35,424 bases of DNA from a virus. The position numbers and the translations under genes are program-made. Shown in pieces: positions 50 to 27,512 of the stretch (position 1 is its first letter; each line of letters opens with the position of its first letter). The stretch is taken from the UHGV virus genome UHGV-0155082; one strand, given 5' to 3'. The notes beneath the pieces were generated by a model, which saw only the letters and a list, made by a program, of their open reading frames with translations, made no database searches and had not been told where the DNA came from.

Positions 50-1579
50 TTAGTTTTCATTTTGGGAAATTTTTTCCAGAACTGAGTCAACCATTTTTAT
101 TCCCATCTCATTTACTACATCAGAATTAATAACTCTATCAAAATAGCTTTCTATATGTTGGGAAAAAAGGAAGGCTGCACTGGATGGTTCTTTGTTCTTT
201 TCAACTGCGTATTGCAGAACCATATGAGGAGGCACATGTGCATTTTTGCAGGATGCAACAAGGTACTCAAATTCATCAAAAGCTAAGCAAAATATATTTT
301 CTTTAGGTATGTGGTAGTCAGTATTGAATTTATCATATATCTTTAGCATCTCAGTTTCTGCATATGTACTGGCAAGGAATGTACCATTACCTAAAAATAA
401 GTTTTTATATGTAATGCATATCACAAAAGATTCTTTCCTGAATGGGGTTATTGTTGCTTTATCGTCTAAGTAAATTTCTCTGTTAACTTCATGAGCTTGC
501 TCGATAGCTTTTAAAACAGACTTTTTTATTTTTCCTGAAATATCCTCTGGCCGTAAAGTAACCATGCCTTTTTGATGTATTTCAACCCCCTTGGCATCAA
601 TGAATATATTTGCATTCGCGTGTGGAAACAAAAAATCAACTACTTTATTATCTTTGGGTAACTTTTCTTTAAGATGATCCTCTGTGATAACAGGAATATT
701 ACTCTCTTGAATAATTTTTCCTAATGCTCTTTCGAATACAGTTCCAAAACTGTCCATGAATTTTTCAGCGTCAGTTCTTCTTAAAAGGTCATATATAAAT
801 GTTTGTATGCTTCTTGATGTTAGTTGTGCATGTATCTGGAAATAATCAGAACCTTTTTTGATTAAAGGATTTTCTAAGTACGGTGAAGATGAATAGTATT
901 CTAACAAAGGCTTTTCAAATGTCTTGGATTTTGAAAATTTTGATAGCTCACTGTAATTTATTGAGATTGCATCGAGAAAGTTCTCTACGGTATCTTTGGG
1001 TAAAATAGGGAATAACACACTGAAACTATTGACATTTATTTTTCTGACGGGATGTTCCGTTGTTATTAGTGATATTAAAATGTAAGATAGTTTTAAAAAA
1101 TCATCAATTGAAATGTTTGTTAACTTGAAAAACGATGTCTTTATTTTATGAGTGTTTTCGAGTTGTGAGAATAAAAATACCTGTCTGCTAATGGAGTTTA
1201 TTGCGTCAATTTTTTGATAAATACCTTGTTGGTATAAATTATTTCTTAGAAAAAAATGCACTCCGTTTTTCTTTTCAAGACCAATGGGGATGATACTTAA
1301 AGTTTCATAGGCTTTTTGAAATAGCTTGATGGCTTGATTTTTTGTAAGGGTTTTGAACTTTCTATTCTTGCCTATTACAGATGCTGACCATTTTAAACAT
1401 AAGTTTACTATCCACGGCATATGACGCAGCATGTGTAAATTATCATCAAATTTTTGTAGATTATATTGCATGCAGAATTCAATGAATAATTCGGGGTTAT
1501 AACTTTGAATTTCTGAACGAATAGAGTCCATTCTCAGTTTAGCAACAGCATCTGATTGAATGTCTATATTTTTAATCAC
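50..1579 (-). CDS. Hypothetical 509-aa protein, AT-rich accessory gene immediately downstream of int on the same strand; possible PD-(D/E)xK-like nuclease motif in the C-terminal half
   Basis: Long ORF with GTG start at 1579 preceded on the minus strand by GGAG about 8 nt upstream. Only 12 nt separate it from the int stop. Visibly AT-rich codon usage unlike the phage core. Motif VDFLFPHANANIFIDAKGVE resembles a D...(D/E)xK nuclease core. No family recognised by eye. Confidence 0.55.
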   Translation of the reverse strand: MIKNIDIQSDAVAKLRMDSIRSEIQSYNPELFIEFCMQYNLQKFDDNLHMLRHMPWIVNLCLKWSASVIGKNRKFKTLTKNQAIKLFQKAYETLSIIPIGLEKKNGVHFFLRNNLYQQGIYQKIDAINSISRQVFLFSQLENTHKIKTSFFKLTNISIDDFLKLSYILISLITTEHPVRKINVNSFSVLFPILPKDTVENFLDAISINYSELSKFSKSKTFEKPLLEYYSSSPYLENPLIKKGSDYFQIHAQLTSRSIQTFIYDLLRRTDAEKFMDSFGTVFERALGKIIQESNIPVITEDHLKEKLPKDNKVVDFLFPHANANIFIDAKGVEIHQKGMVTLRPEDISGKIKKSVLKAIEQAHEVNREIYLDDKATITPFRKESFVICITYKNLFLGNGTFLASTYAETEMLKIYDKFNTDYHIPKENIFCLAFDEFEYLVASCKNAHVPPHMVLQYAVEKNKEPSSAAFLFSQHIESYFDRVINSDVVNEMGIKMVDSVLEKISQNEN

Positions 1580-3633: not shown

Positions 3634-4143
3634 ATGTTTGATTACAAGATTTCCAAACATCCGCATTTTGATGAAGCCTGTAGGGCTTTTGCACTACGCC
3701 ACAACCTGGTGCAACTGGCAGAACGTGCAGGCATGAATGTGCAGATTCTGCGGAACAAGCTGAACCCAGCTCAACCTCATTTATTAACCGCACCAGAAAT
3801 CTGGCAGCTTACCGATCTGACTGAAGATTCAACGCTGGTAGACGGTTTTCTGGCACAGATTCATTGTCTGCCATGTGTACCGATTAATGAGGTGGCAAAA
3901 GAGAAACTGCCACATTACGTTATGAGTGCAACTGCAGAGATAGGGCGTGTCGCGGCAGGTGCGGTTTCTGGCGATGTAAAAACCAGTGCAGGCCGTCGTG
4001 ATGCGATCAGCAGCATTAACTCTGTTACACGACTGATGGCGCTGGCTGCTGTTTCATTGCAGGCCCGTTTACAGGCTAATCCTGCGATGGCGAGTGCAGT
4101 TGATACCGTGACTGGCCTCGGTGCCTCATTCGGTTTGCTGTGA
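3634..4143 (+). CDS. CII-like lysogeny establishment regulator (186 CII / CP76 family)
   Basis: 169 aa, the length of 186 CII. Second gene of the early operon. RBS GGGGG before the ATG. Alanine-rich C-terminus. Confidence 0.55.
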
Positions 4144-4150
4144 GGTGCTT

Positions 4151-4351
4151 ATGCTGACGAAAGAACCATCATTTGCATCGCTGCTGGTAAAACAAAGCCC
4201 GGCAATGCACTACGGTCACGGCTGGATCATGGGGGAGGATGGTAAACGCTGGCATCCGTGCCGTTCACAAGATGAATTGCTGGCAGAACTATCTACGAAA
4301 AAACGGGGGAACAAATGGCTATTGAAGGCGCTGCGGCGACTGTTCCATTAA
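4151..4351 (+). CDS. Small early protein, hypothetical (position of 186 fil)
   Basis: ATG at 4151 preceded by GAGGTG. About 66 aa. Synteny only. Confidence 0.35.
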   Translation: MLTKEPSFASLLVKQSPAMHYGHGWIMGEDGKRWHPCRSQDELLAELSTKKRGNKWLLKALRRLFH

Positions 4352-4656
4352 GCCCCGGTGAACGCCTGAATGGACTTAACCATATTGCGGAGTTAAGGGC
4401 GAAAGTATTTGGCCTGAATATTGAGTCAGAGCTTGAGCGGTTTATTAAAGATATGCGTGATCCACGGGATATCAATAACGAACAAAATAAACGGGCACTG
4501 GCTGCTATATTCTTTATGGCAAAAATTCCAGCTGAACGTCATAGCATCAGCATTAATGAGCTGACCACTGACGAAAAGCGGGAGTTGATTAAAGCAATGA
4601 ATCATTTTCGTGCAGTGGTGAGCTTATTTCCCAGACGGCTAACCATGCCGAATTAA
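4315..4656 (+). CDS. Hypothetical early protein (113 aa)
   Basis: ORF with ATG at 4315 preceded by GGGGGAA. Overlaps the preceding small ORF by 37 nt. Confidence 0.45.
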   Translation: MAIEGAAATVPLSPGERLNGLNHIAELRAKVFGLNIESELERFIKDMRDPRDINNEQNKRALAAIFFMAKIPAERHSISINELTTDEKRELIKAMNHFRAVVSLFPRRLTMPN

Positions 4657-4723
4657 CCAACTAATGAAATTAATGGCGTAAACCCGCCGGGCATCCCTTT
4701 ATCTAAATTCAGGAGAATTGATT

Positions 4724-4957
4724 ATGCGTAATATTGAAACCCTCTCGACCAAAACCGGACCGGATGACGCAGGGCTTAATATTTTACTGACAGAGGCTCG
4801 TCTGGAAGAACGCCGGGCAAGGGCTGAAGCAATGGCAGCTCGCCTTGATAGCCTGGCGTGTCATATCACATCCCGCCAGCTAACCCACGTCGAAGCGGCA
4901 GAACTGCTTCGTGTGACTGCTGAAGCAATCCAGAACGAAGTGCAGGAGATCCACTAA
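4724..4957 (+). CDS. Hypothetical early protein (77 aa)
   Basis: ATG at 4724 preceded by AGGAG at 8-nt spacing. Stop overlaps the start of the next gene (TAATG). Confidence 0.5.
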   Translation: MRNIETLSTKTGPDDAGLNILLTEARLEERRARAEAMAARLDSLACHITSRQLTHVEAAELLRVTAEAIQNEVQEIH

Positions 4958-5184
4958 TGGCTGATGCAATGGATCTCGTACAGCAGCGCGTTGAAGAAGA
5001 ACGCCAACGCCATATCCGTGCTGCCCGTGCCAAAACGCCGGGCGTGTCCCGCGTGCTTTGCATTGAGTGTGAAGCGCCAATTCCGCCAGCACGCCGCCGT
5101 GCCATTCCGGGTGTGCAGCTTTGCATTACCTGTCAGGAAATCGCAGAGCTGAAAGGCAAACATTACAACGGAGGTGCTGTATGA
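4957..5184 (+). CDS. DksA/TraR-family C4 zinc-finger protein
   Basis: 75 aa with CIECEAPIP...(17 aa)...CITCQE, i.e. C-x2-C ... C-x2-C typical of the TraR/DksA C4 finger. Start overlaps the upstream stop. Confidence 0.65.
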   Translation: MADAMDLVQQRVEEERQRHIRAARAKTPGVSRVLCIECEAPIPPARRRAIPGVQLCITCQEIAELKGKHYNGGAV

Positions 5185-6038
5185 GCACCATCCTGAAATG
5201 GGCGGGAAATAAAACTGCCATAATGTCCGAACTGAAAAAACATCTTCCTGCTGGCCCGCGACTGGTTGAACCTTTCGCGGGTTCCTGTGCTGTGATGATG
5301 GAGACGGATTATCCCAGCTATCTGGTTGCGGATATTAATCCTGATTTAATCAACATCTATAAAAAGGTTGCCGCTGATTGTGAATCGTTTATATCTCGCG
5401 CCAGAGTTTTATTTAAGGAAGCAAACAGGGAGGTGGCTTATTACAACATAAGGCAGGAGTTTAATTACTCAACTGAAATTACTGATTTCATGAAAGCGGT
5501 ATATTTCCTGTATCTCAATCGTCACGGTTACCGTGGTTTATGTCGCTATAACAAGAGCGGGCATTTCAACATTCCCTACGGTAATTATAAAAATCCGTAT
5601 TTCCCTGAAAAAGAAATTCGCGCATTTGCAGAAAAGGCCCAGCGAGCAACGTTTATCTGCGCCAGCTTTGATGAAACGCTGGCGATGTTGAAGGCGGGGG
5701 ATGTGGTGTATTGCGATCCGCCGTATGACGGTACGTTTTCCGGCTATCACACTGACGGCTTCACTGAAGATGACCAGTATCACCTGGCATCTGTTCTTGA
5801 ACATCGGTCATCAGAAGGACATCCGGTCATTGTTTCTAACAGTGACACATCCCTGATCCGTTCGCTGTATCGCAATTTTACTCACCACTACATCAAGGCA
5901 AAACGCAGCATCGGTGTGGCAGCTGGCGAGGGTAAATCAGCAACAGAAATCATTGCTGTTTCCGGGCCGCGCTGCTGGGTGGGATTTGATTATTCGCGTG
6001 GCGTGGATAGTTCTGCCGTGTACGGAGTACGTGCATGA
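5181..6038 (+). CDS. dam: DNA adenine methyltransferase (Dam-like, N6-adenine MTase)
   Basis: ATG at 5181 preceded by GGAGGTG. N-terminal [11 protein letters not shown]...EPFAGSCAV (AdoMet-binding motif I) and catalytic DPPY motif ([10 protein letters not shown]). Confidence 0.85.
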
Positions 6039-8449
6039 GTCATGCCGATATGAACAACTGCTGCGGCTTTAACGAAGCTGCCGCATCGTTCTCATGGAAC
6101 AGCCCGAAAAAGGCCATTAACCCTTATCTGGACCCGGTGGAAGTTGCGCCGGTTTCTACGCTTTCAAACCTGATCACTCTGTACGCTGCCGATAACGAGC
6201 AGGAACAGCTGCGCCGTGAGGCGCTGAGTGATCAGGTCTGGGAGCGTTATTTCTTTAATGAATCCCGTGATCCTGTCCAGCGCGAAATGGAACAGGATAA
6301 GCTCATTAGTCGGGCAAAGCTGGCGCATGAGCAGCAGCGTTTTAATCCGGATATGGTCATTCTGGCGGACGTCAACGCCCAGCCCTCCCATATCAGCAAG
6401 CCGCTGATGCAACGTATTGAATATTTCAGCAGCCTGGGCAGGCCAAAGGCTTATTCCCGCTATTTGCGTGAGACGATTAAGCCATGTCTGGAACGACTGG
6501 AGCATGTCCGCGACTGTCAGCTATCCACTTCTTTTCGCTTTATGGCAAGCCATGAAGGGCTGGATGGCCTGCTTATCCTGCCTGAAATGAGTCAGGATCA
6601 GGTGAAGCGCCTGTCTACCCTTGTCGCTGCGCATATGAGCATGTGCCTTGATGCCGCTTGTGGTGATTTGTATGCCACCGATGACGTTAAGCCAGAAGAA
6701 ATCCGCAAAACATGGGAAAAGGTGGCAGCGGAAACCCTGCGTCTGGATGTTATTCCGCCTGCGTTTGAGCAACTCCGTCGGAAAAGAAACCGCCGTAAAC
6801 CCGTGCCCTATGAACTCATTCCGGGTTCGTTGGCGCGTATGTTGTGTGCCGACTGGTGGTATCGGAAATTATGGAAGATGCGTTGCGAATGGCGGGAAGA
6901 GCAGTTGCGTGCTGTCTGCCTGGTCAGCAAAAAAGCATCCCCCTATGTCAGCTATGAAGCCGTGATGCATAAACGTGAGCAGCGCCGTAAGTCGCTGGAG
7001 TTTTTCCGTTCTCATGAACTGGTGAACGAAGACGGCGACACGCTGGATATGGAAGATGTGGTAAACGCCAGCAGCAGCAACCCGGCGCATCGCCGCAATG
7101 AGATGATGGCCTGTGTTAAAGGTCTGGAGCTTATCGCGGAAATGCGCAGTGACTGCGCCGTTTTCTACACTATCACCTGTCCGTCGCGTTTCCATTCCAC
7201 GCTCAATAACGGCAGACCCAACCCGACCTGGACAAACTCGACGGTAAGACAAAGCAGCGACTATCTGGTCGGCATGTTTGCTGCATTTCGTAAGGCGATG
7301 CACAAAGCCGGATTGCGCTGGTATGGCGTGCGGGTGGCTGAGCCGCATCATGACGGTACAGTTCACTGGCACCTGTTGTGTTTTATGCGCAAAAAAGACC
7401 GCCGCGCCATCACTGCATTACTGCGTAAGTTTGCCATCCGTGAAGACCGCGAGGAGCTGGGCAATAACACTGGGCCGCGCTTTAAGTCTGAGTTGATTAA
7501 CCCGCGCAAAGGAACGCCGACAAGCTACATCGCGAAATATATCAGTAAGAACATTGACGGGCGTGGTCTGGCTGGCGAGATCAGCAAGGAAACGGGTAAA
7601 TCTCTGCGTGATAACGCTGAATACGTTAATGCCTGGGCGTCTCTGCATCGTGTTCAGCAATTCCGCTTCTTTGGCATTCCGGGGCGTCAGGCTTACCGTG
7701 AACTGCGATTGCTGGCTGGTCAGGCGGCAAGGCAACAGGGTGACAAAAAAGCAGGTGCTCCGGTACTGGATAACCCGCGCCTTGATGCCATTCTGGCTGC
7801 TGCTGATGCTGGCTGTTTTGCCACCTACATTATGAAGCAGGGCGGCGTGTTGGTTCCCCGCAAATATCACTTGATCAGAACCGCTTATGAAATCAACGAA
7901 GAGCCGACCGCCTATGGCGATCACGGCATTCGTATTTATGGCATCTGGTCACCCATTGCAGAGGGCAAGATCTGCACTCATGCAGTGAAGTGGAAAATGG
8001 TTCGTAAGGCCGTTGACGTTCAGGAGGCGGCAGCCGACCAGGGCGCTTGCGCCCCTTGGACTCGTGGCAATAACTGTCCCCTTGCTGAAAATTTGTACCA
8101 ACAAGGGAAAGACAAATCAGCTGATGGAGATACCAGAACGGATATCACCCGCATGGATGACAAGGAGTTGCACGATTACCTGCACAGTATGAGCAAAAAA
8201 GAGCGCCGGGAACTGGCTGCAAGGTTACGCCTGGTGAAACCGAAACGGCGTAAAGACTACAAACAGCGAATTACAGACCATCAGCGACAGCAGCTCGTCT
8301 ATGAACTGGAGTCCAGAGGATTTAATGGCAGCGAGAAAGAGGTCGATTTACTCCTTCGCGGCGGCAGTATTCCGTCAGGAGCAGGTCTGCGTATCTTCTA
8401 TCGGAACCAGCGTTTGCAGGAAGATGATAAGTGGCGAAACCTGTATTAA
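6035..8449 (+). CDS. A: Replication initiation endonuclease (P2 gpA-like rolling-circle initiator)
   Basis: 804 aa. HUH-type motif VHWHLLCF and paired active-site tyrosines YIAKYISKN. Start overlaps the dam stop (ATGA). Position after the early genes as in P2. Confidence 0.9.
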
Positions 8450-8602: not shown

Positions 8603-8791
8603 ATGCAGGACTATTTTTTGGAGTCTTTGAAGCTCCAGCGCATTGATTTTTTTCTTAAGCTTGTAGCGGCTAGTGAGTGTAGTGATGAAGAGAAGGGGCT
8701 GGCTTTGCAGTGGGTTTCTGAACTGACAGATGAACTCATGGCAAAAATCAGAAGCCACGAATACAACCGCTCAATGGATGTCATCAGCTGA
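8603..8791 (+). CDS. Small SOS-regulated protein (62 aa), possible Tum-like antirepressor
   Basis: ATG at 8603 preceded by AGGAGG. Directly downstream of the LexA box. Followed by a DinI-like ORF, an arrangement reminiscent of 186 tum. Confidence 0.45.
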   Translation: MQDYFLESLKLQRIDFFLKLVAASECSDEEKGLALQWVSELTDELMAKIRSHEYNRSMDVIS

Positions 8792-8801
8792 GGGGACTTT
8801 T

Positions 8802-9035
8802 ATGCGCATTGAAATAATGATCGATAAAGAGCAGAAGATTAGCCAGTCTACCCTGGACGCCCTTGAATCCGAGCTTTACCGCAATCTGCGCCCCCTGTAT
8901 CCCAAAACGGTAATTCGTATCCGTAAAGGTAGCTCTAACGGTGTGGAACTGACCGGACTGCAACTGGACGAAGAAAGGAAGCAAGTGATGAAAATTATGC
9001 AGAAGGTGTGGGAAGACGACAGCTGGCTGCATTAA
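8802..9035 (+). CDS. DinI-family protein
   Basis: 77 aa starting MRIEIMIDK...; the pattern MRIE..I.K......DAL..EL.R.......P....V.....S.......G..........I..I....WE..D.W matches E. coli DinI. RBS GAGGGGA upstream. Confidence 0.75.
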   Translation: MRIEIMIDKEQKISQSTLDALESELYRNLRPLYPKTVIRIRKGSSNGVELTGLQLDEERKQVMKIMQKVWEDDSWLH

Positions 9036-9305: not shown

Positions 9306-9521
9306 ATGTCAAGCATCGCCGCATTTAGCCTGGGTAACCCAGTTGAACGTCTGGCAAGGGTTCTTAAAGAGAACCAGGACAAACTCAATCTTAGTAAAGA
9401 TGGTTTTGTGTCCGTAGACTTGTCTAACAAAAGAGCAATGGATGCCATCAAGGCACAGATGGATAAGCTTGAAGGCATCAAAACGAGCACTGTAAAAGAG
9501 AAAACTAATAGAACCAGATAA
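9306..9521 (+). CDS. Hypothetical 71-aa soluble protein, first gene of a two-gene accessory operon
   Basis: ATG preceded by AAGGGGGAG. Stop TAA overlaps the ATG of the downstream 280-aa gene (TAATG). No recognisable motif. Confidence 0.5.
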   Translation: MSSIAAFSLGNPVERLARVLKENQDKLNLSKDGFVSVDLSNKRAMDAIKAQMDKLEGIKTSTVKEKTNRTR

Positions 9522-10363
9522 TGGCAACATTACTTTTAGCAGTGATTTTGGTTAGTGGTTTTATTTATGTAAACCTATCACTTTCAACAAGATACCGATA
9601 TAAGCGTTCCAACGGCTGGGACGCTTATTTTTTTGTGGCTGCCTGGGGTATCGTTTTTTTTCTCCTTGGCGGTTTTTTCACCTTTATTTTGAACGTCAGC
9701 GGAGGGTTTCGTTGGCTGGCTAATGCCTTGAATCTAACACCTGACAGTTTTAATGGCATGTTGTCTTCATCGAAAGACAAACTTCAAAGAATAAATGAAA
9801 TCAAACAGATAGCATGGGTTATGATTTCAATTGTCCTCGCTGCGATTTCAGGTTTTGGAAATAAGTTACGCACATCACGTGGAGATCGTCGCTGGGATGC
9901 CTTAGCTAAAGCTGTGGGTAATAACGCTTTCGAATCATTACTCATGGAAGCGTCCGCAAGACAGTTTCCGATCATAGCAACTCTGTCGTCTCGCAAAATC
10001 TATGTTGGTCTTGTTACTTGTCCGGCGTTAGAAAACGGGCTTTCAGAGCACCTTGAACTTCTCCCGATGTTAAGCGGATATCGGGATAAAGATGATCTAA
10101 CGATTAGTATCACGACTAACTATCACCAACATTATCTTGATAGTGGTGTGATAAGTGGAATGTCTCGTCTTAATATCGAAGATTTCCGTGTGCTCATACC
10201 AAAAGATGAGGTTGAAACAATTTCGTTTTTTGATACTGAGACATATAACAAATTTAAAGAAAATGAAGCCAGGGATAGAAAGAGCTGTCGAAAGATTGGT
10301 AGTAAAAGTGCATCTTCGCGCAGCAAGCGTGCAGCAGATGCTGAGTCAAATGATCGTGCATGA
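9521..10363 (+). CDS. Hypothetical 280-aa integral membrane protein (three predicted TM helices plus a charged C-terminal domain)
   Basis: Hydrophobic segments LLLAVILVSGFIYVNLSL, AYFFVAAWGIVFFLLGGFFTFIL and IAWVMISIVLAAISGFG. Lysine/serine/arginine-rich C-terminal tail. Occupies the position of tin/old in P2. Followed by a terminator. Confidence 0.6.
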   Translation: MATLLLAVILVSGFIYVNLSLSTRYRYKRSNGWDAYFFVAAWGIVFFLLGGFFTFILNVSGGFRWLANALNLTPDSFNGMLSSSKDKLQRINEIKQIAWVMISIVLAAISGFGNKLRTSRGDRRWDALAKAVGNNAFESLLMEASARQFPIIATLSSRKIYVGLVTCPALENGLSEHLELLPMLSGYRDKDDLTISITTNYHQHYLDSGVISGMSRLNIEDFRVLIPKDEVETISFFDTETYNKFKENEARDRKSCRKIGSKSASSRSKRAADAESNDRA

Positions 10364-10410
10364 CTATGCTGCATGAGATCGCATGATCGTTTGAGGATCG
10401 TTTTTGCTAA

Positions 10411-10436
10411 GGCCCGCCAGAACTGGCGGGCTTTTG
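10411..10436 (+). terminator. Rho-independent terminator after the 71-aa/280-aa operon
   Basis: GC-rich hairpin gcccgccag / ctggcgggc followed by TTTT. Confidence 0.65.
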
Positions 10437-10480
10437 CGTAGATCATGCACCTGCATGAAAACTACTACATAAAGCGGGCA

Positions 10481-10499
10481 GGCGTGGCGGGGATACGAG
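10481..10499. other. Candidate cos (cohesive-end) region
   Basis: GC-rich ggcgtggcggggatacgag matches about 14 of 19 positions of the P2 cohesive end as I recall it (ggcgaggcggggaaagcac). Lies in non-coding DNA upstream of the portal/terminase cluster. Recalled from memory and not verified. Confidence 0.3.
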
Positions 10500-10588
10500 C
10501 GCGCGCTGATGGGGGACGCAGTGCTTTTGGCATAGTTATGAGGTAGAATTTCAAAATACTTTTTAGCGCTGTTGGAGGTATAGACAAA

Positions 10589-11134
10589 ATGGACGTTATA
10601 ACTGGAGTTGCAGAGTTTTTTCGAAAAGTACCTGCAGCATTTCTTGTGGCTATTACATGTGTTTTAGGTCTTATACTTTTTCTGCCAGACTCTTTGGCAG
10701 TAAAAGTGGCTGTTGATGGCTTTCGTAATGAGTATAGGATTTTTATTGGACCTGCATTTTTACTGTCTGTATCTTATTTAGTTGCAAGAGTCTATCTCTC
10801 TTTCTATGACTTACTTGGTGAAAGGCAGGCTAAGAAGGTACGCACTTCCTACCTTGAGAAGCTAACAGCAGAAGAAAAAGGATATTTAAAGTCTTATATT
10901 ACCGAAGGTGTTAATTCACTTATGTGTGGGCCTGAGGATGGGGTCATGGGGGGACTTGTGGCTAAGGGGATTACTTATAGAGCCACCAGTGTTGGGGATA
11001 TGATCTACGGTTTTGCTTTCAACTTACAGCCATGGGCGCGTGAACATTTAGAGAAAAATAGTCATTTATTAGATGGGGCTATTGGGCGTGCAATGACTCC
11101 AAGAGAAAAATTAAACTTTAGATTGGGACGCTAA
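10589..11134 (+). CDS. Hypothetical 181-aa membrane protein, possibly a superinfection-exclusion (SieB-like) protein
   Basis: ATG preceded by GGAGG. N-terminal TM helix AAFLVAITCVLGLILFLP and a second hydrophobic segment IFIGPAFLLSVSYLVARVYL. Lies between the cos-like element and the portal gene. SieB assignment is from weak recollection only. Confidence 0.45.
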   Translation: MDVITGVAEFFRKVPAAFLVAITCVLGLILFLPDSLAVKVAVDGFRNEYRIFIGPAFLLSVSYLVARVYLSFYDLLGERQAKKVRTSYLEKLTAEEKGYLKSYITEGVNSLMCGPEDGVMGGLVAKGITYRATSVGDMIYGFAFNLQPWAREHLEKNSHLLDGAIGRAMTPREKLNFRLGR

Positions 11135-11180
11135 CCAGTCACACATTACCAATGTGTGACTGGTGGTGGTTATTTCTTTT
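11135..11180. terminator. Perfect 13-bp inverted repeat (hairpin) with T-rich tail, probable terminator between convergent genes
   Basis: ccagtcacacatt-acc-aatgtgtgactgg (11135..11163) followed by tggtggttatttctttt. Sits between the stop of the 181-aa gene and the stop of Q. Confidence 0.55.
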
Positions 11181-12216
11181 ATTCAATGTCAAATTTATAT
11201 GGTTCAAAAGAAATAACCTTTTCCCCCAACCACTCATTTAGTTCTTCGAGTCTTTTTTGTAGCGGTATTAACTCATTACGGACAAAGACGCGGCTGGCTT
11301 TTTCCACATCACCAAAGCCGCCGGTATTGTTGGGAATAATGCCCATCATTTGCGGCGGCACACGATGCGCCGCCATCATGTCATCCCGGCTCACGTTCTT
11401 GATATTCAAAAACTCATCCTTCGCTGCGACCTCTGACAACGGGATAATCTGAAGGCCGTCTTTTTTGCCGTTGGGCGAGTACATAAACAGGTTTCGGAAG
11501 TTACCCGGACCTTTGGCGCTTTTCATTGCGTTGCGGAGGTTGTTCACATCCTCCTGGTTCTGCGCGGCATCGGTCATATACATGATGAAGCCTGCATGAC
11601 TGCCGTTAATGTAATACTTGCGGCGGAACAGCGTGGCGGACTCGTTGAGCAGGGCTGACGGAATGGCAGAAAGATAACCGGGCAGGCCGTAGATCTCCTG
11701 GTTAATGTCCGGTTCCATCAGATGAAAAATGCTGCCTTTCGTGAACTGATACGGCTGGGTTGTCATACCGTATTGCACAAACCAGTAGGTATCCAGGTCT
11801 AATCCGCGTCGGGTGTATTTTGCCAGCGCAGGTTCAAGGGCGATCACTTCACCGAAGCGGTTCGTGCGTTTCTCCAGGTAGGCGTTACCAAATACCAGAT
11901 AGTCCTGCACAAAACGTGAAAAAGCCTGCTGGCTGAGCAGCGGGTGAGGGATATAGGTGCTGGTCAGAATGTTGCACTTTACTGCAATCGGTGAGCTGTG
12001 GTGCACGGCGGCGCGGAATGTTCGCGCCAGTCCGTCAAAGCTGACGGGCGGCTCATACCAGCGGTCCATCTGTACGCATTCCACATAGTCCAGCAGTTCA
12101 CGGCGGTCCAGAACAGGAACGGGATCGCCAAAGCTGAATGCTTCGGCTGTAGTCTGGCTTTTATGCTTGAGCTGATTCGTCGCCGCAGCGCGGTTTTTCT
12201 TACTCTTTCCCATCAA
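11179..12216 (-). CDS. Q: Capsid portal protein (P2 gpQ-like)
   Basis: 345 aa. Adjacent to and co-oriented with the large terminase, divergent from the O-N-M-L operon, as in P2. Translation reads as a typical P2 portal protein. Confidence 0.85.
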   Translation of the reverse strand: MMGKSKKNRAAATNQLKHKSQTTAEAFSFGDPVPVLDRRELLDYVECVQMDRWYEPPVSFDGLARTFRAAVHHSSPIAVKCNILTSTYIPHPLLSQQAFSRFVQDYLVFGNAYLEKRTNRFGEVIALEPALAKYTRRGLDLDTYWFVQYGMTTQPYQFTKGSIFHLMEPDINQEIYGLPGYLSAIPSALLNESATLFRRKYYINGSHAGFIMYMTDAAQNQEDVNNLRNAMKSAKGPGNFRNLFMYSPNGKKDGLQIIPLSEVAAKDEFLNIKNVSRDDMMAAHRVPPQMMGIIPNNTGGFGDVEKASRVFVRNELIPLQKRLEELNEWLGEKVISFEPYKFDIE

Positions 12217-19973: not shown

Positions 19974-21089
19974 GTGTTAGCAAATAATCAAATAATTGAT
20001 GTGCCCGCAGCTGGAAGCTTTAATTTTATTACCGGAGATAATGGGACCGGTAAAACAAGGTTTTTGACAATTCTGGCCAATTCGGTTTTAAATGATTTGA
20101 TTTCGAGTAGTAGTGAATATGATAAATTAATTTGCCTGACTGGTACTGTTTATGAGAAATTCCCTAGGCCATTAAAAAAGAAAGATTATAAAAGTGAGAA
20201 ATACGATAGAGTATATTCTTATTTTGGCGGCAGGGTGAACAATAACGTTTTCTCAGGTCTCTCGCCTTTTAGAGTTATAATGAAATGCTATTGTGGGTTT
20301 GAAATAAATCCTGGTTCTTTTGAGTTGGCAGATAAATTATTAAATGATCTTGGATTTAGTTCTACGGTGGAATGTAAGTTTAGAAATGAAAAGTCTAAGT
20401 TGGAGAATAGACGCTCTATAATCAACAATGAGGATGTAACTGTAGATTTATCTAAGTCTCCGTCACAACTGACTAACATGAAAAGGCAAAGCATTGCTAA
20501 TGATGATTTGTTCTTATTAAATATAAATTTTGTTAAGCTTTCTGATAAAAAATCATATGGCATACGAGATCTGAGTTCTGGTGAACGAAGTTTTATAATA
20601 ACAATATTGTCACTTGTGTTTAGTTTGAGAGAGCGAACCCTCATTTTATTTGATGAGCCAGAGAACTCAATGCACCCTAAATGGCAGGAGAAAATAATAT
20701 CAACAATTAAGTATATTGTTGATATGCTATCACCTGAATCAACTGTAATAATTGCAACTCATTCCCCATTGGTTGTTTCATGTGTGACAAATAATAATAC
20801 ATTTACATTGAATTTGCCTGGTGAGCACATATGGAAAGCTTCATATTATGCTGGTAATAACGCTGATTCAGTGTTAAAGGAACAGTTTGGGGTGATCTCG
20901 CCAAGATCTGAAGAATTTCAGATTGCTATGCAAAAATGTTTGACTTCATTTAGTTTGAATGAAGAAGGTGGTTCTTTCTTGCAGGATATGGAGCGATTGT
21001 TTGGGATGAAAATATCCTTAAATAAGGATGACCCACTTTATGATGCTTATGAGACACTTACGGATTTTTATCTGGAGAGGAAACTATGA
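19974..21089 (+). CDS. ABC-type/AAA_21-like ATPase, Septu PtuA-like candidate defence ATPase
   Basis: 371 aa, AT-rich. Walker A GDNGTGKTR (residues about 21-29), signature-like LSSGERS, Walker B LILFDEPE, H-loop-like ATHSPLV. GTG start with AGGTG upstream. Stop overlaps the start of the HNH gene (ATGA). Confidence 0.75.
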   Translation: MLANNQIIDVPAAGSFNFITGDNGTGKTRFLTILANSVLNDLISSSSEYDKLICLTGTVYEKFPRPLKKKDYKSEKYDRVYSYFGGRVNNNVFSGLSPFRVIMKCYCGFEINPGSFELADKLLNDLGFSSTVECKFRNEKSKLENRRSIINNEDVTVDLSKSPSQLTNMKRQSIANDDLFLLNINFVKLSDKKSYGIRDLSSGERSFIITILSLVFSLRERTLILFDEPENSMHPKWQEKIISTIKYIVDMLSPESTVIIATHSPLVVSCVTNNNTFTLNLPGEHIWKASYYAGNNADSVLKEQFGVISPRSEEFQIAMQKCLTSFSLNEEGGSFLQDMERLFGMKISLNKDDPLYDAYETLTDFYLERKL

Positions 21090-21775
21090 GCTTGGGTCCG
21101 GGGAAGCTAAGTCCGGTGCATAGGGTTTTTATAAACAGAAGGGAAGCTAGACTGTTGATAGCTGAATTTCTTTCTGGAACAATTCTTTGGTCTGATCCAA
21201 AGTTATCTGCGCTAAAGAATAATATAAGGCTCTCTTTACGAGAGCAGCAATGTGGGCGTTGTGTTTTTTGTCGGAGAATAATAAAAGAGGAGCGCAGAAA
21301 CACTACTGAAGATATTGAGCACTTTCTGGATAAATCCAAAGGGTACTATAAGAAATGGGCCTTTCATCCTATGAATTTATCTATAGCATGTCACTCATGC
21401 AACTTTGTTAAAAGTACGAAGCAAATGGGAGATGTTAATATTCAGCGCGCGCAGTATCTAGTGCCTGGTATTGGTGTGTTTAGGTGGTTGCATCCATATT
21501 TTGACGACTATCATGAAAATATCTCAATAGAGAAGGGTTGGGTATATCGTATTGTTGATGGAGCGCCAAATCATAATGGAGCAGAAAATTTAATTAGAGA
21601 ATGTGAGTTGTCGGGAATAGCTAATATAGAACGCAATGCTGAGAATTATAAATTGACCTGTCAAAGGCTATTAAAGTTAGCAATTGCTTGTGCCGAAAAA
21701 GGTCGAATTACACGAATGAAAAAATTGCAGTTGTCTTTGCAGAAATTAATGGAATCGAAACAATTTGACTTTTAG
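21086..21775 (+). CDS. HNH endonuclease, Septu PtuB-like candidate defence nuclease
   Basis: 229 aa. CGRCVFC ... EDIEHFLDKSKGYYKKWAFHPMNLSIACHSCN gives an H...N...H core flanked by C-x2-C pairs (zinc-finger HNH). Translationally coupled to the upstream ATPase. Confidence 0.8.
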   Translation: MSLGPGKLSPVHRVFINRREARLLIAEFLSGTILWSDPKLSALKNNIRLSLREQQCGRCVFCRRIIKEERRNTTEDIEHFLDKSKGYYKKWAFHPMNLSIACHSCNFVKSTKQMGDVNIQRAQYLVPGIGVFRWLHPYFDDYHENISIEKGWVYRIVDGAPNHNGAENLIRECELSGIANIERNAENYKLTCQRLLKLAIACAEKGRITRMKKLQLSLQKLMESKQFDF

Positions 21776-26374: not shown

Positions 26375-26501
26375 CTGAGAATTAAATGGTTAGTATCATC
26401 CTCCCCCACACTGCCTATATGGTATGAATACGAGGGGGAGGCTGTTTGTTGTCTGTTTCTGTGATAATATTAGATTCTCGTTTTTTAATAAAAAAATCAA
26501 T

Positions 26502-27512
26502 ATGAAAGAGAATAAAATACGTTCTGCCGATGGCGTGAGAGGTTTCGCTTTGATGATTGTTGTGGTGATGCATGCTACGGGACTATTCTTTCCCTCACTT
26601 CATGATCATCTCGGAGGTACGGGGCAGCCCGGTGTTTGGTTGTTTTTTGTTCTTAGCGCCTTTTTGTTGACACATAAATTTATTAATTCTGGTTTTTCGT
26701 TTTTGAATGTGTTGAGTTATCTTTTAGGGCGAACAATAAGGATATTACCGATTTTTTATATTGCAGTATTAATTTATTACCTTATGGGATTTTATGATTT
26801 AGAGAAAATGAAATCGATAATTTCATTTGATAGTACTTACATCCATCTCTGGACTATTCCGATAGAATTCAAGTTTTACTTTTTGTTGCCGATTGTGGTT
26901 TATCTCGCATCTAGTATCCAGAAAGTTGCAGGTAGAAAATATTCTTTGTTGTTTTTGATATTGTTAACCTTAGCGTTCGCTTTTATATACCCTTATACGG
27001 ATGACGAAATCAACGGTAGGCTACCGTATTACATTCCTGTTTTTATGTATGGAATTATAATTGCGTTTATGTATAACTATTTTCAAATTAAAATATCATC
27101 TCTCGTTAGTGATGGGGTGTCAATTGCGATTATATTAATATTTATAATGTTGACCCCTCCTTTTCAGGGGGCTAATGGTTGGCTGGGTAATAAATTTGTG
27201 GTATTAGGGCCATTTATTGCTCTCTTTGTATATCTGCAAGTAAATTCCAGTGGGTATGTAAGCGCGGTTTTATCTTCAAAAATCATGGCGGATTTGGGGA
27301 AATATAGTTTTTCAATTTATTTGTTTCATATAATGATAATTTTTATTGTTTATCCTAAATTTTTGGATAATGTTACTGCATACTTAGTTACTATAGCTTT
27401 ATGTATTGGCGGTGGGGCTATTGCCTATCATTGCATTGAATCTCCCTTGGAATCGTTCAGACATAAGCTTATGAAAAGAATAACGCAGGCTTATCAGAAT
27501 CAAAATATTTAA
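26502..27512 (+). CDS. Acyltransferase family 3 integral membrane protein (OafA/Oac-like, probable O-antigen/LPS acyltransferase)
   Basis: AT-rich ORF; the six-frame ORF begins at 26424 and the likely ATG is at 26502. N-terminal R-x-x-D-G-V-R-G-x-A...H motif (IRSADGVRGFALMIVVVMHATG) of the acyltransferase_3 family. About 10 hydrophobic segments. Located between G and FI. Confidence 0.75.
   Translation: MKENKIRSADGVRGFALMIVVVMHATGLFFPSLHDHLGGTGQPGVWLFFVLSAFLLTHKFINSGFSFLNVLSYLLGRTIRILPIFYIAVLIYYLMGFYDLEKMKSIISFDSTYIHLWTIPIEFKFYFLLPIVVYLASSIQKVAGRKYSLLFLILLTLAFAFIYPYTDDEINGRLPYYIPVFMYGIIIAFMYNYFQIKISSLVSDGVSIAIILIFIMLTPPFQGANGWLGNKFVVLGPFIALFVYLQVNSSGYVSAVLSSKIMADLGKYSFSIYLFHIMIIFIVYPKFLDNVTAYLVTIALCIGGGAIAYHCIESPLESFRHKLMKRITQAYQNQNI

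Follow-up and report, generated by a model that had tools for sequence, protein, structure and literature searches.

The window analysed here is the whole 35,424-nucleotide stretch of UHGV virus genome UHGV-0155082 and represents a P2-like E. coli prophage, whose left end carries an integrase and a CI repressor of the 186 type. Replication gene A occupies positions 6035-8449, the portal and terminase genes Q and P are located on the minus strand from position 11179, and the late genes follow. Between the cos site and Q lies an ORF on the plus strand (10589..11134), which begins with ATG and encodes a protein of 181 aa that is identical to WP_021548667; it belongs to the SieB family (see below) and is referred to here as sieB. 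The gene is found 90 nt to the right of the P2-type cos 19-mer and 44 nt from the stop codon of the portal gene Q (11179-12216, minus strand), an ORF whose product is named "phage portal protein" in an identical record and which forms the right edge of the cargo slot. On reading the sequence, a GGAGG Shine-Dalgarno sequence (10574-10578, plus strand) was recognised 10 nt upstream of the start codon; the GAGGT of this ribosome-binding site is kept in relatives of the sieB locus. Both the 181-aa ORF and its GGAGG are present as described in an earlier note on this DNA.

The cohesive-end 19-mer of the window, GGCGTGGCGGGGATACGAG, is located at 10481-10499 on the plus strand. When compared by reading, it aligns with the P2 cohesive ends (cosL, GGCGAGGCGGGGAAAGCAC, and cosR) together with the flanks on either side, so that the element which the earlier note had called cos-like is real. 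It is part of the conserved cos region of P2-like phages (10356..10507, plus strand), which includes a terminator-like hairpin upstream of the 19-mer at about 10410-10435, and the motif occupies an equal relative position in all P2-like loci fetched. Positions 10356-10507 are the sole part of the interval 10300-11250 that is common to approximately 1,270 E. coli genomes and 60 deposited P2-like phages (90-98% identity). From position 10508 to the Q stop codon the DNA is specific to the prophages that carry sieB. In P2 itself, cosL (1-19) and Q (187-1221) are separated by the terminator tQ alone. The same note had stated that P2 has no gene between cos and Q and that the window gene is extra cargo; both statements agree with the comparison, the gene being absent in P2 and the slot of related prophages being empty or filled by other genes.

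A -10-like hexamer, TAGAAT, is located upstream of the gene at 10544-10549 (plus strand). The sequence GGTAGAATTT, which contains this hexamer, is invariant in three sieB-bearing P2-like prophages, namely those of the window, E. coli EH09-18-41 and Scandinavium, in which the adjoining 5'-UTR has diverged; the Citrobacter allele of sieB has TACACT at the place of TAGAAT. No acceptable -35 element was found in the region upstream of sieB, and a sigma-70 consensus scan of that region calls no promoter. Of the separate promoter previously claimed for this gene, the TAGAAT hexamer is thus confirmed, whereas the -35 element and the promoter call are missing. A weak constitutive sieB promoter at TAGAAT is a plausible candidate.

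The 44-nt gap between the convergent stop codons of sieB and Q is largely taken up by a perfect hairpin of 13-14 bp (11134-11164). Its arms (11135-11147 on the 5' side and 11151-11163 on the 3' side, with the loop ACC) follow directly after the sieB stop codon; the stem comprises 13 bp, or 14 bp if the pair A11134-T11164 is counted. The folding energy is -25.9 kcal/mol (z = -5.7), which was equalled by none of 200 shuffled sequences, and the perfect 13-bp inverted repeat reported earlier at the 3' end of the gene is borne out by both its arms and its energy. The T-tract on the 3' side of the hairpin, GGTGGTTATTTCTTTTATTC, is imperfect, and the hairpins of relatives are weaker or absent; P2 has its canonical tQ at the corresponding place. 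The hairpin may plausibly serve as the sieB terminator. As there is no T-run on the Q (minus) strand of the hairpin, late transcripts of the P-Q operon could run into sieB in antisense orientation, and such read-through (11134-11181) is regarded as a possibility.

The 181-aa protein was compared with Pfam, where it matched PF14163 (SieB) with E = 4.5e-25 and 88.4 bits over profile positions 2-146 of 147, the gathering score of this family being 26 bits. The earlier note had guessed at a SieB-type protein and proposed an HMM search against Pfam SieB; that search is positive, and the guess is further supported by the PGAP name of the identical protein WP_021548667.1 ("superinfection exclusion B family protein") and by the label given to it in a table of Rousset et al. 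2022. Scans of the 181-aa protein against PADLOC, PHROGs and NCBIfam yielded no matching model, and a profile search of PDB sequences gave nothing meaningful (best E = 0.096).

A structure was predicted with AlphaFold. When 40 close homologues were supplied, only the membrane hairpin was resolved, and the C-domain had pLDDT values of 40-55; with 140 sequences from three clades (the YopH-type and lambda-type clades being added), the C-domain was resolved as well, and the model reached a pLDDT of 92.4 and a pTM of 0.71. In this model a short amphipathic helix (aa 2-13) precedes transmembrane helix 1, which spans aa 16-32 (10634-10684, plus strand) by hydropathy, with a Kyte-Doolittle peak of 2.7, and aa 16-31 in the model, with pLDDT >90. 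A short helix in the loop comes next, and then a single long helix (aa 43-90) that comprises both the second transmembrane helix (aa 51-73; 10739-10807, plus strand; Kyte-Doolittle value of 1.66, marginal) and a cytoplasmic stalk. The description of the product as a two-TM protein in the earlier note accords with these two N-terminal hydrophobic segments, both of which are AlphaFold helices with pLDDT >90. Basic residues flank the hydrophobic segments at the cytoplasmic ends (R12/K13 and R79/K82/K83/R85), and the loop of 18 residues between the helices has no net charge, which points to an N-in/C-in topology; the model and these flanks indicate a membrane helical hairpin with both ends in the cytoplasm.

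The stalk leads in the model to a winged-helix-like cytoplasmic alpha/beta domain (aa 92-161; 10862-11071, plus strand), which consists of a helix (94-105), a strand (111-113), a second helix (118-125), a hairpin (129-131/141-146) and further helices (148-161). Most of the invariant residues of the protein are found in this C-domain (T93, E95-G98, D117, G118, M120, F142, N145 and W149-R151); 28 columns are invariant across 40 sequences that range from Enterobacteria to Desulfobacteria. Helix 118-125 (GVMGGLVA) contains no basic residue, and the region from aa 96 to aa 181 contains 11 K/R versus 9 D/E.

Rousset et al. 2022 (PMC9122126) described the gpA-gpQ locus beside cos as a defence hotspot of P2-like phages. 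The cos site lies within this hotspot and splits it in two; the interval between cos and Q is its Q-proximal half and not a new site. The supplementary table of the same study (PMC9122126) labels WP_021548667 as SieB in the gpA-gpQ hotspot and includes the gene order of the window, "hypothetical + DinI + hypothetical + hypothetical + SieB"; the same SieB accession is also listed there as "hypothetical + SieB + DinI". Neither that study nor a follow-up preprint of 2026 names SieB in its main text, and a literature search on SieB found only work on P22 and lambda. The identification of the 181-aa gene as coding for a SieB-family membrane protein, carried as P2-like prophage cargo at a known defence hotspot, is confirmed at the level of sequence. 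Gene, family and location were already on record through the PGAP annotation and the Rousset table. The finding therefore holds but is unremarkable, in that a known family at a known hotspot had already been annotated and catalogued.

The occupants of the slot between cos and Q vary, and besides sieB they include defence genes, to which the retron, the TIR protein, DUF4145 and the P-loop NTPases belong. The slot is empty (approximately 175 bp) in P2 and in the E. coli hits H56-59, contains a DUF4145 protein in strain JSMCR1, and is occupied in other E. coli prophages by a TIR-domain protein, a 223-aa hypothetical protein or a P-loop NTPase. In BL21(DE3) (NC_012892.2) it holds the effector and the reverse transcriptase of retron St85 (3804-5945, with cos at 3804); as the whole retron fits between cos and the portal gene, multi-gene systems can be housed on the Q-proximal side. 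JSMCR1 keeps the left-of-cos genes of the window together with DUF4145 on the right of cos, and the cargo to the left of cos differs among the sieB alleles (DUF4145 in EH09-18-41, AIPR in Scandinavium and a 288-aa protein in Citrobacter). The two halves of the hotspot assort independently. Three diverged sieB alleles were all found in the order cos-sieB-Q of P2-like prophages. The sieB DNA of the window is present in 21 complete E. coli genomes (98.7-100% identity), and three further E. coli genomes contain an allele with 78% nucleotide identity; in total, of the approximately 1,290 E. coli genomes in which a matching P2-like element occurs, about 24 have sieB in the slot. Regarding the three alleles found in the P2 slot, dN/dS values of 0.04-0.07 were obtained (Nei-Gojobori), synonymous sites are saturated between the alleles of the window and EH09, and every copy seen has an intact reading frame. 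The low dN/dS values and the saturated synonymous sites point to a long-standing, strong constraint on the gene within this slot.

Several other genes of the prophage were also noted. To the left of cos, a 71-aa ORF (phrog_9843) whose stop codon overlaps the start of a gene for a 280-aa multi-pass membrane protein (phrog_3630) occupies 9306-10363 (plus strand); this pair, which is the cargo on that side of cos, yielded no Pfam or PADLOC match. In most of the examined P2-like prophages a DinI-like gene (8730-9035 in the window, plus strand; PF06183, E = 1e-22) is conserved at the left end of the hotspot. Two overlapping genes of 371 aa and 229 aa between the late genes S and V (19974-21775, plus strand) match PtuA (PADLOC E = 4e-41; Pfam AAA_21/AAA_15) and PtuB (E = 1e-27) of Septu. 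This predicted Septu pair is a second defence locus, placed among the late genes; it is missing in the prophage of strain I3, which is identical to the window around sieB. An acyltransferase of 362 aa (Acyl_transf_3, PF01757, E = 1e-26; 26424-27512, plus strand) is encoded after the tail-fibre genes at the position of P2 Z/fun and may be a surface-modifying lysogenic-conversion gene. At the edge of the prophage, a 508-aa ORF (50-1579, minus strand) beside the integrase has no Pfam or PADLOC match; the preprint of 2026 describes, for P2-like elements, a minor hotspot of defence genes located between integrase and att.

The close clade of the window protein comprises 195 clusters, with 50-60% identity across Vibrio, Pseudomonas, Halomonas, Aeromonas, Methylophaga and a Desulfobacterium, and a profile of the window clade retrieved 2,132 representative clusters at E <= 1e-3. 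Nearly all of the best 150 relatives have a length of 160-190 aa. The relatives in Vibrio vulnificus, Pseudomonas and Halomonas are located in small variable islands in the company of integrase fragments, HipA and CcdAB toxin modules, a Schlafen-type helicase and an SMC-like ATPase, and no neighbour is common to these islands; such a distribution is typical of a mobile defence gene that stands alone. In each of three Vibrio vulnificus loci the SieB homologue was found approximately 300 bp after a 254-aa protein without a Pfam match, and in two of them an integrase fragment and a 936-aa SMC/AAA_21-like protein are encoded downstream of it. The Vibrio vulnificus island adjoins a truncated Mg-chelatase (comM-like) gene.

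The similarity to the SieB proteins that have been studied genetically is remote. The window protein shows 17% identity to P22 SieB and 16-22% to lambda SieB (15-17% to the two in a multiple alignment), and BLASTP returned E = 0.006 for lambda SieB and a non-significant E = 2.6 for P22 SieB. Comparison of the window clade with the lambda/P22 clade by hhalign gave a probability of 82.5% and E = 9.8e-6 over the N-terminal 104 columns only, which take in the membrane hairpin and extend to the first C-domain helix. Lambda SieB itself matches PF14163 with 103.5 bits. The best viral structural match (Foldseek against BFVD; probability 1.00, E = 0.0097) was a 195-aa protein from the N-operon region of P22, which by its size and position is probably SieB. 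With 15-17% identity, a BLASTP score for P22 that is not significant and an hhalign match restricted to the N-terminal part, transferring the phenotype to the window protein is a long extrapolation. P22 SieB halts macromolecular synthesis midway in the lytic cycle of the superinfecting phage (PMC10461980), and P22 is shielded against its own SieB by Esc and the antisense sas RNA (PMC12197685). According to the P22 record, esc is read in the same frame as sieB and starts at Met25, 72 nt inside sieB. No Esc-like internal start was found in the window gene, in which no in-frame ATG occurs before codon 112 and the only alternative start nearby is a GTG at codon 20 that lacks a Shine-Dalgarno sequence. 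Nor does the window gene have the early-operon setting, since it lies between cos and Q and is convergent with the late P-Q operon.

By homology with P22 and lambda SieB, it is fairly probable that the window gene codes for a prophage-expressed inner-membrane cargo protein which excludes other phages by abortive infection. As deduced from P22 and lambda, the SieB-family protein would be made in the lysogen, here from its own weak promoter; after infection by a heterologous phage, macromolecular synthesis would stop part-way through the lytic cycle, and the infected cell would give no progeny, so that the exclusion would amount to abortive infection and not to a block of DNA entry. The cytoplasmic domain might recognise a product of the infecting phage, which is a conjecture and the weakest step of the scheme; as helix 118-125 contains no basic residue, this product would more likely be a protein than DNA. 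Recognition might then switch the membrane hairpin to a form that collapses membrane energisation, again by conjecture, and the anatomy of the model suggests that the rigid stalk could couple the cytoplasmic domain as sensor to the membrane hairpin as effector. Because Esc and sas are absent, the trigger is presumably something that P2-like phages do not make.

Four other readings were weighed against abortive infection. The predicted inner-membrane location, the place of the gene in prophage cargo near other exclusion genes and the very name "superinfection exclusion" would suit a membrane protein that stops DNA injection, as P22 SieA does. Such an entry blocker is unlikely, however: the P22 homologue SieB takes effect once the DNA has been injected, midway in the lytic cycle (PMC10461980), most of the conserved residues belong to the cytoplasmic domain rather than to the periplasmic loop of 18 residues, and the Pfam search revealed no similarity to SieA or other injection-blocker families. 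Quite improbable is a role in the physiology of the prophage itself or of the host, whether in lysis timing as a holin-like or antiholin protein or as a membrane stress protein, with no anti-phage role: the gene is found outside the lysis cassette, with holin, lysozyme and LysB/C annotated elsewhere in the prophage, it occurs in just the 24 or so E. coli genomes out of approximately 1,290 with P2-like prophages, it has relatives in non-phage islands, and a Pfam search extended to E = 1 gave no holin family. The two-helix N-in/C-in hairpin does resemble class II holins, and the gene is convergent with the late P-Q operon, on whose Q strand there is no T-run terminator.

The gene could also be one part of a joint system of several genes that is split by cos and includes those of the 71-aa protein (9306-9521) and the 280-aa membrane protein (9521-10363), all of them adjacent, on the same strand and listed in this order in the Rousset table. 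The company kept by sieB makes this very improbable. In JSMCR1 it is DUF4145 and not SieB that accompanies the 71/280-aa pair, the same SieB accession is listed without the pair in the order "hypothetical + SieB + DinI", other sieB alleles have AIPR, DUF4145 or the 288-aa protein to the left of cos, and the upstream neighbour in Vibrio is unrelated to the 280-aa protein; moreover, a terminator-like hairpin and cos stand between the genes. A two-gene system of sieB with the upstream 280-aa membrane protein was likewise considered and rejected, since the partners vary and the Vibrio neighbour is unrelated. Finally, the consensus scan that calls no promoter would fit a silent or functionless hitchhiker retained through its linkage to cos. 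We give this reading very little credence in view of the dN/dS values of 0.04-0.07 with synonymous sites saturated between alleles, the 28 invariant columns in 40 sequences and the reading frame that is intact in the copies seen.

Abortive infection thus being the reading that we favour, a further and more tentative one concerns the whole YopH/P2-type clade of PF14163, which may constitute a self-contained single-gene abortive-infection system, in which a membrane-anchored winged-helix-like domain in the cytoplasm would sense a phage protein and the two-helix hairpin would then collapse membrane energisation. The clade is large (approximately 2,100 representative clusters in Proteobacteria, Firmicutes and beyond) and absent from PADLOC; if this reading were true, the system would be widespread, would have been overlooked in defence catalogues and would differ mechanistically from the SieB proteins of P22 and lambda in needing no Esc/sas self-immunity.

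The SieB-family proteins that are common in bacteria appear as remote kin of the two that have been studied genetically, without the Esc device, and the structural model, with its hairpin, stalk and winged-helix-like domain, suggests how one small protein might sense infection and kill the cell. The compact stand-alone clade would be a convenient system for working out the mechanism of SieB. With respect to the locus, the defence hotspot of P2-like phages is documented on both sides of cos.

The known systems with which the window gene can be compared differ in what they share with it. P2 Old and Tin are encoded at the same cos-adjacent variable locus and are likewise non-essential and serve to exclude phages, but the proteins are unrelated to the window protein, and their genes are located to the left of cos whereas the window sieB is located to the right. 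In contrast to the winged-helix DNA-binding regulators of the MarR/ArsR type, the window protein has no basic recognition helix. In lambda, the prophage-expressed RexA/RexB pair brings about abortive infection through a cytoplasmic sensor coupled to a membrane effector that halts macromolecular synthesis. The mode of action proposed here would resemble that of Rex in the coupling of a sensor to a membrane effector, although Rex consists of two proteins and the window system of one chain, and there is no kinship in sequence or fold between Rex and SieB.

P22 SieB shares with the window protein membership in PF14163, a length of approximately 180-190 aa, two N-terminal hydrophobic helices and an "LTxxE" helix that opens the C-domain, and both prophage genes are oriented against the neighbouring lytic operon. 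The P22 gene, however, is part of the P_L operon of a lambdoid phage, whereas the window gene is found between cos and Q of a P2-like one, and Esc is made from Met25 in P22, whereas the window gene has no Esc/sas features. Lambda SieB, also a member of PF14163, is of comparable size and has a similar topology; the alignment with it extends over the hairpin and the opening helix of the C-domain. The C-terminal motif of the window protein, FAFNLQPWAREYL, is not kept in lambda SieB. The lambda-type clade consists of 18 clusters from Enterobacteria only and the YopH-type clade of 15 clusters; the clade of the window is far larger than the lambda-type clade. When 50,697 deposited phage genomes were searched by tblastn, the hits were confined to SPbeta YopH and an Akkermansia phage, and the gene was not found in any P2-like phage. 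YopH of the Bacillus phage SPbeta, although it comes from a phage of a Gram-positive host and has another genomic neighbourhood, is the closest relative among deposited phage genomes (28% identity, E = 4e-14, 92% coverage), shares the motif FAxNxQPWARxYL with the window protein and is also annotated as a member of the SieB family.
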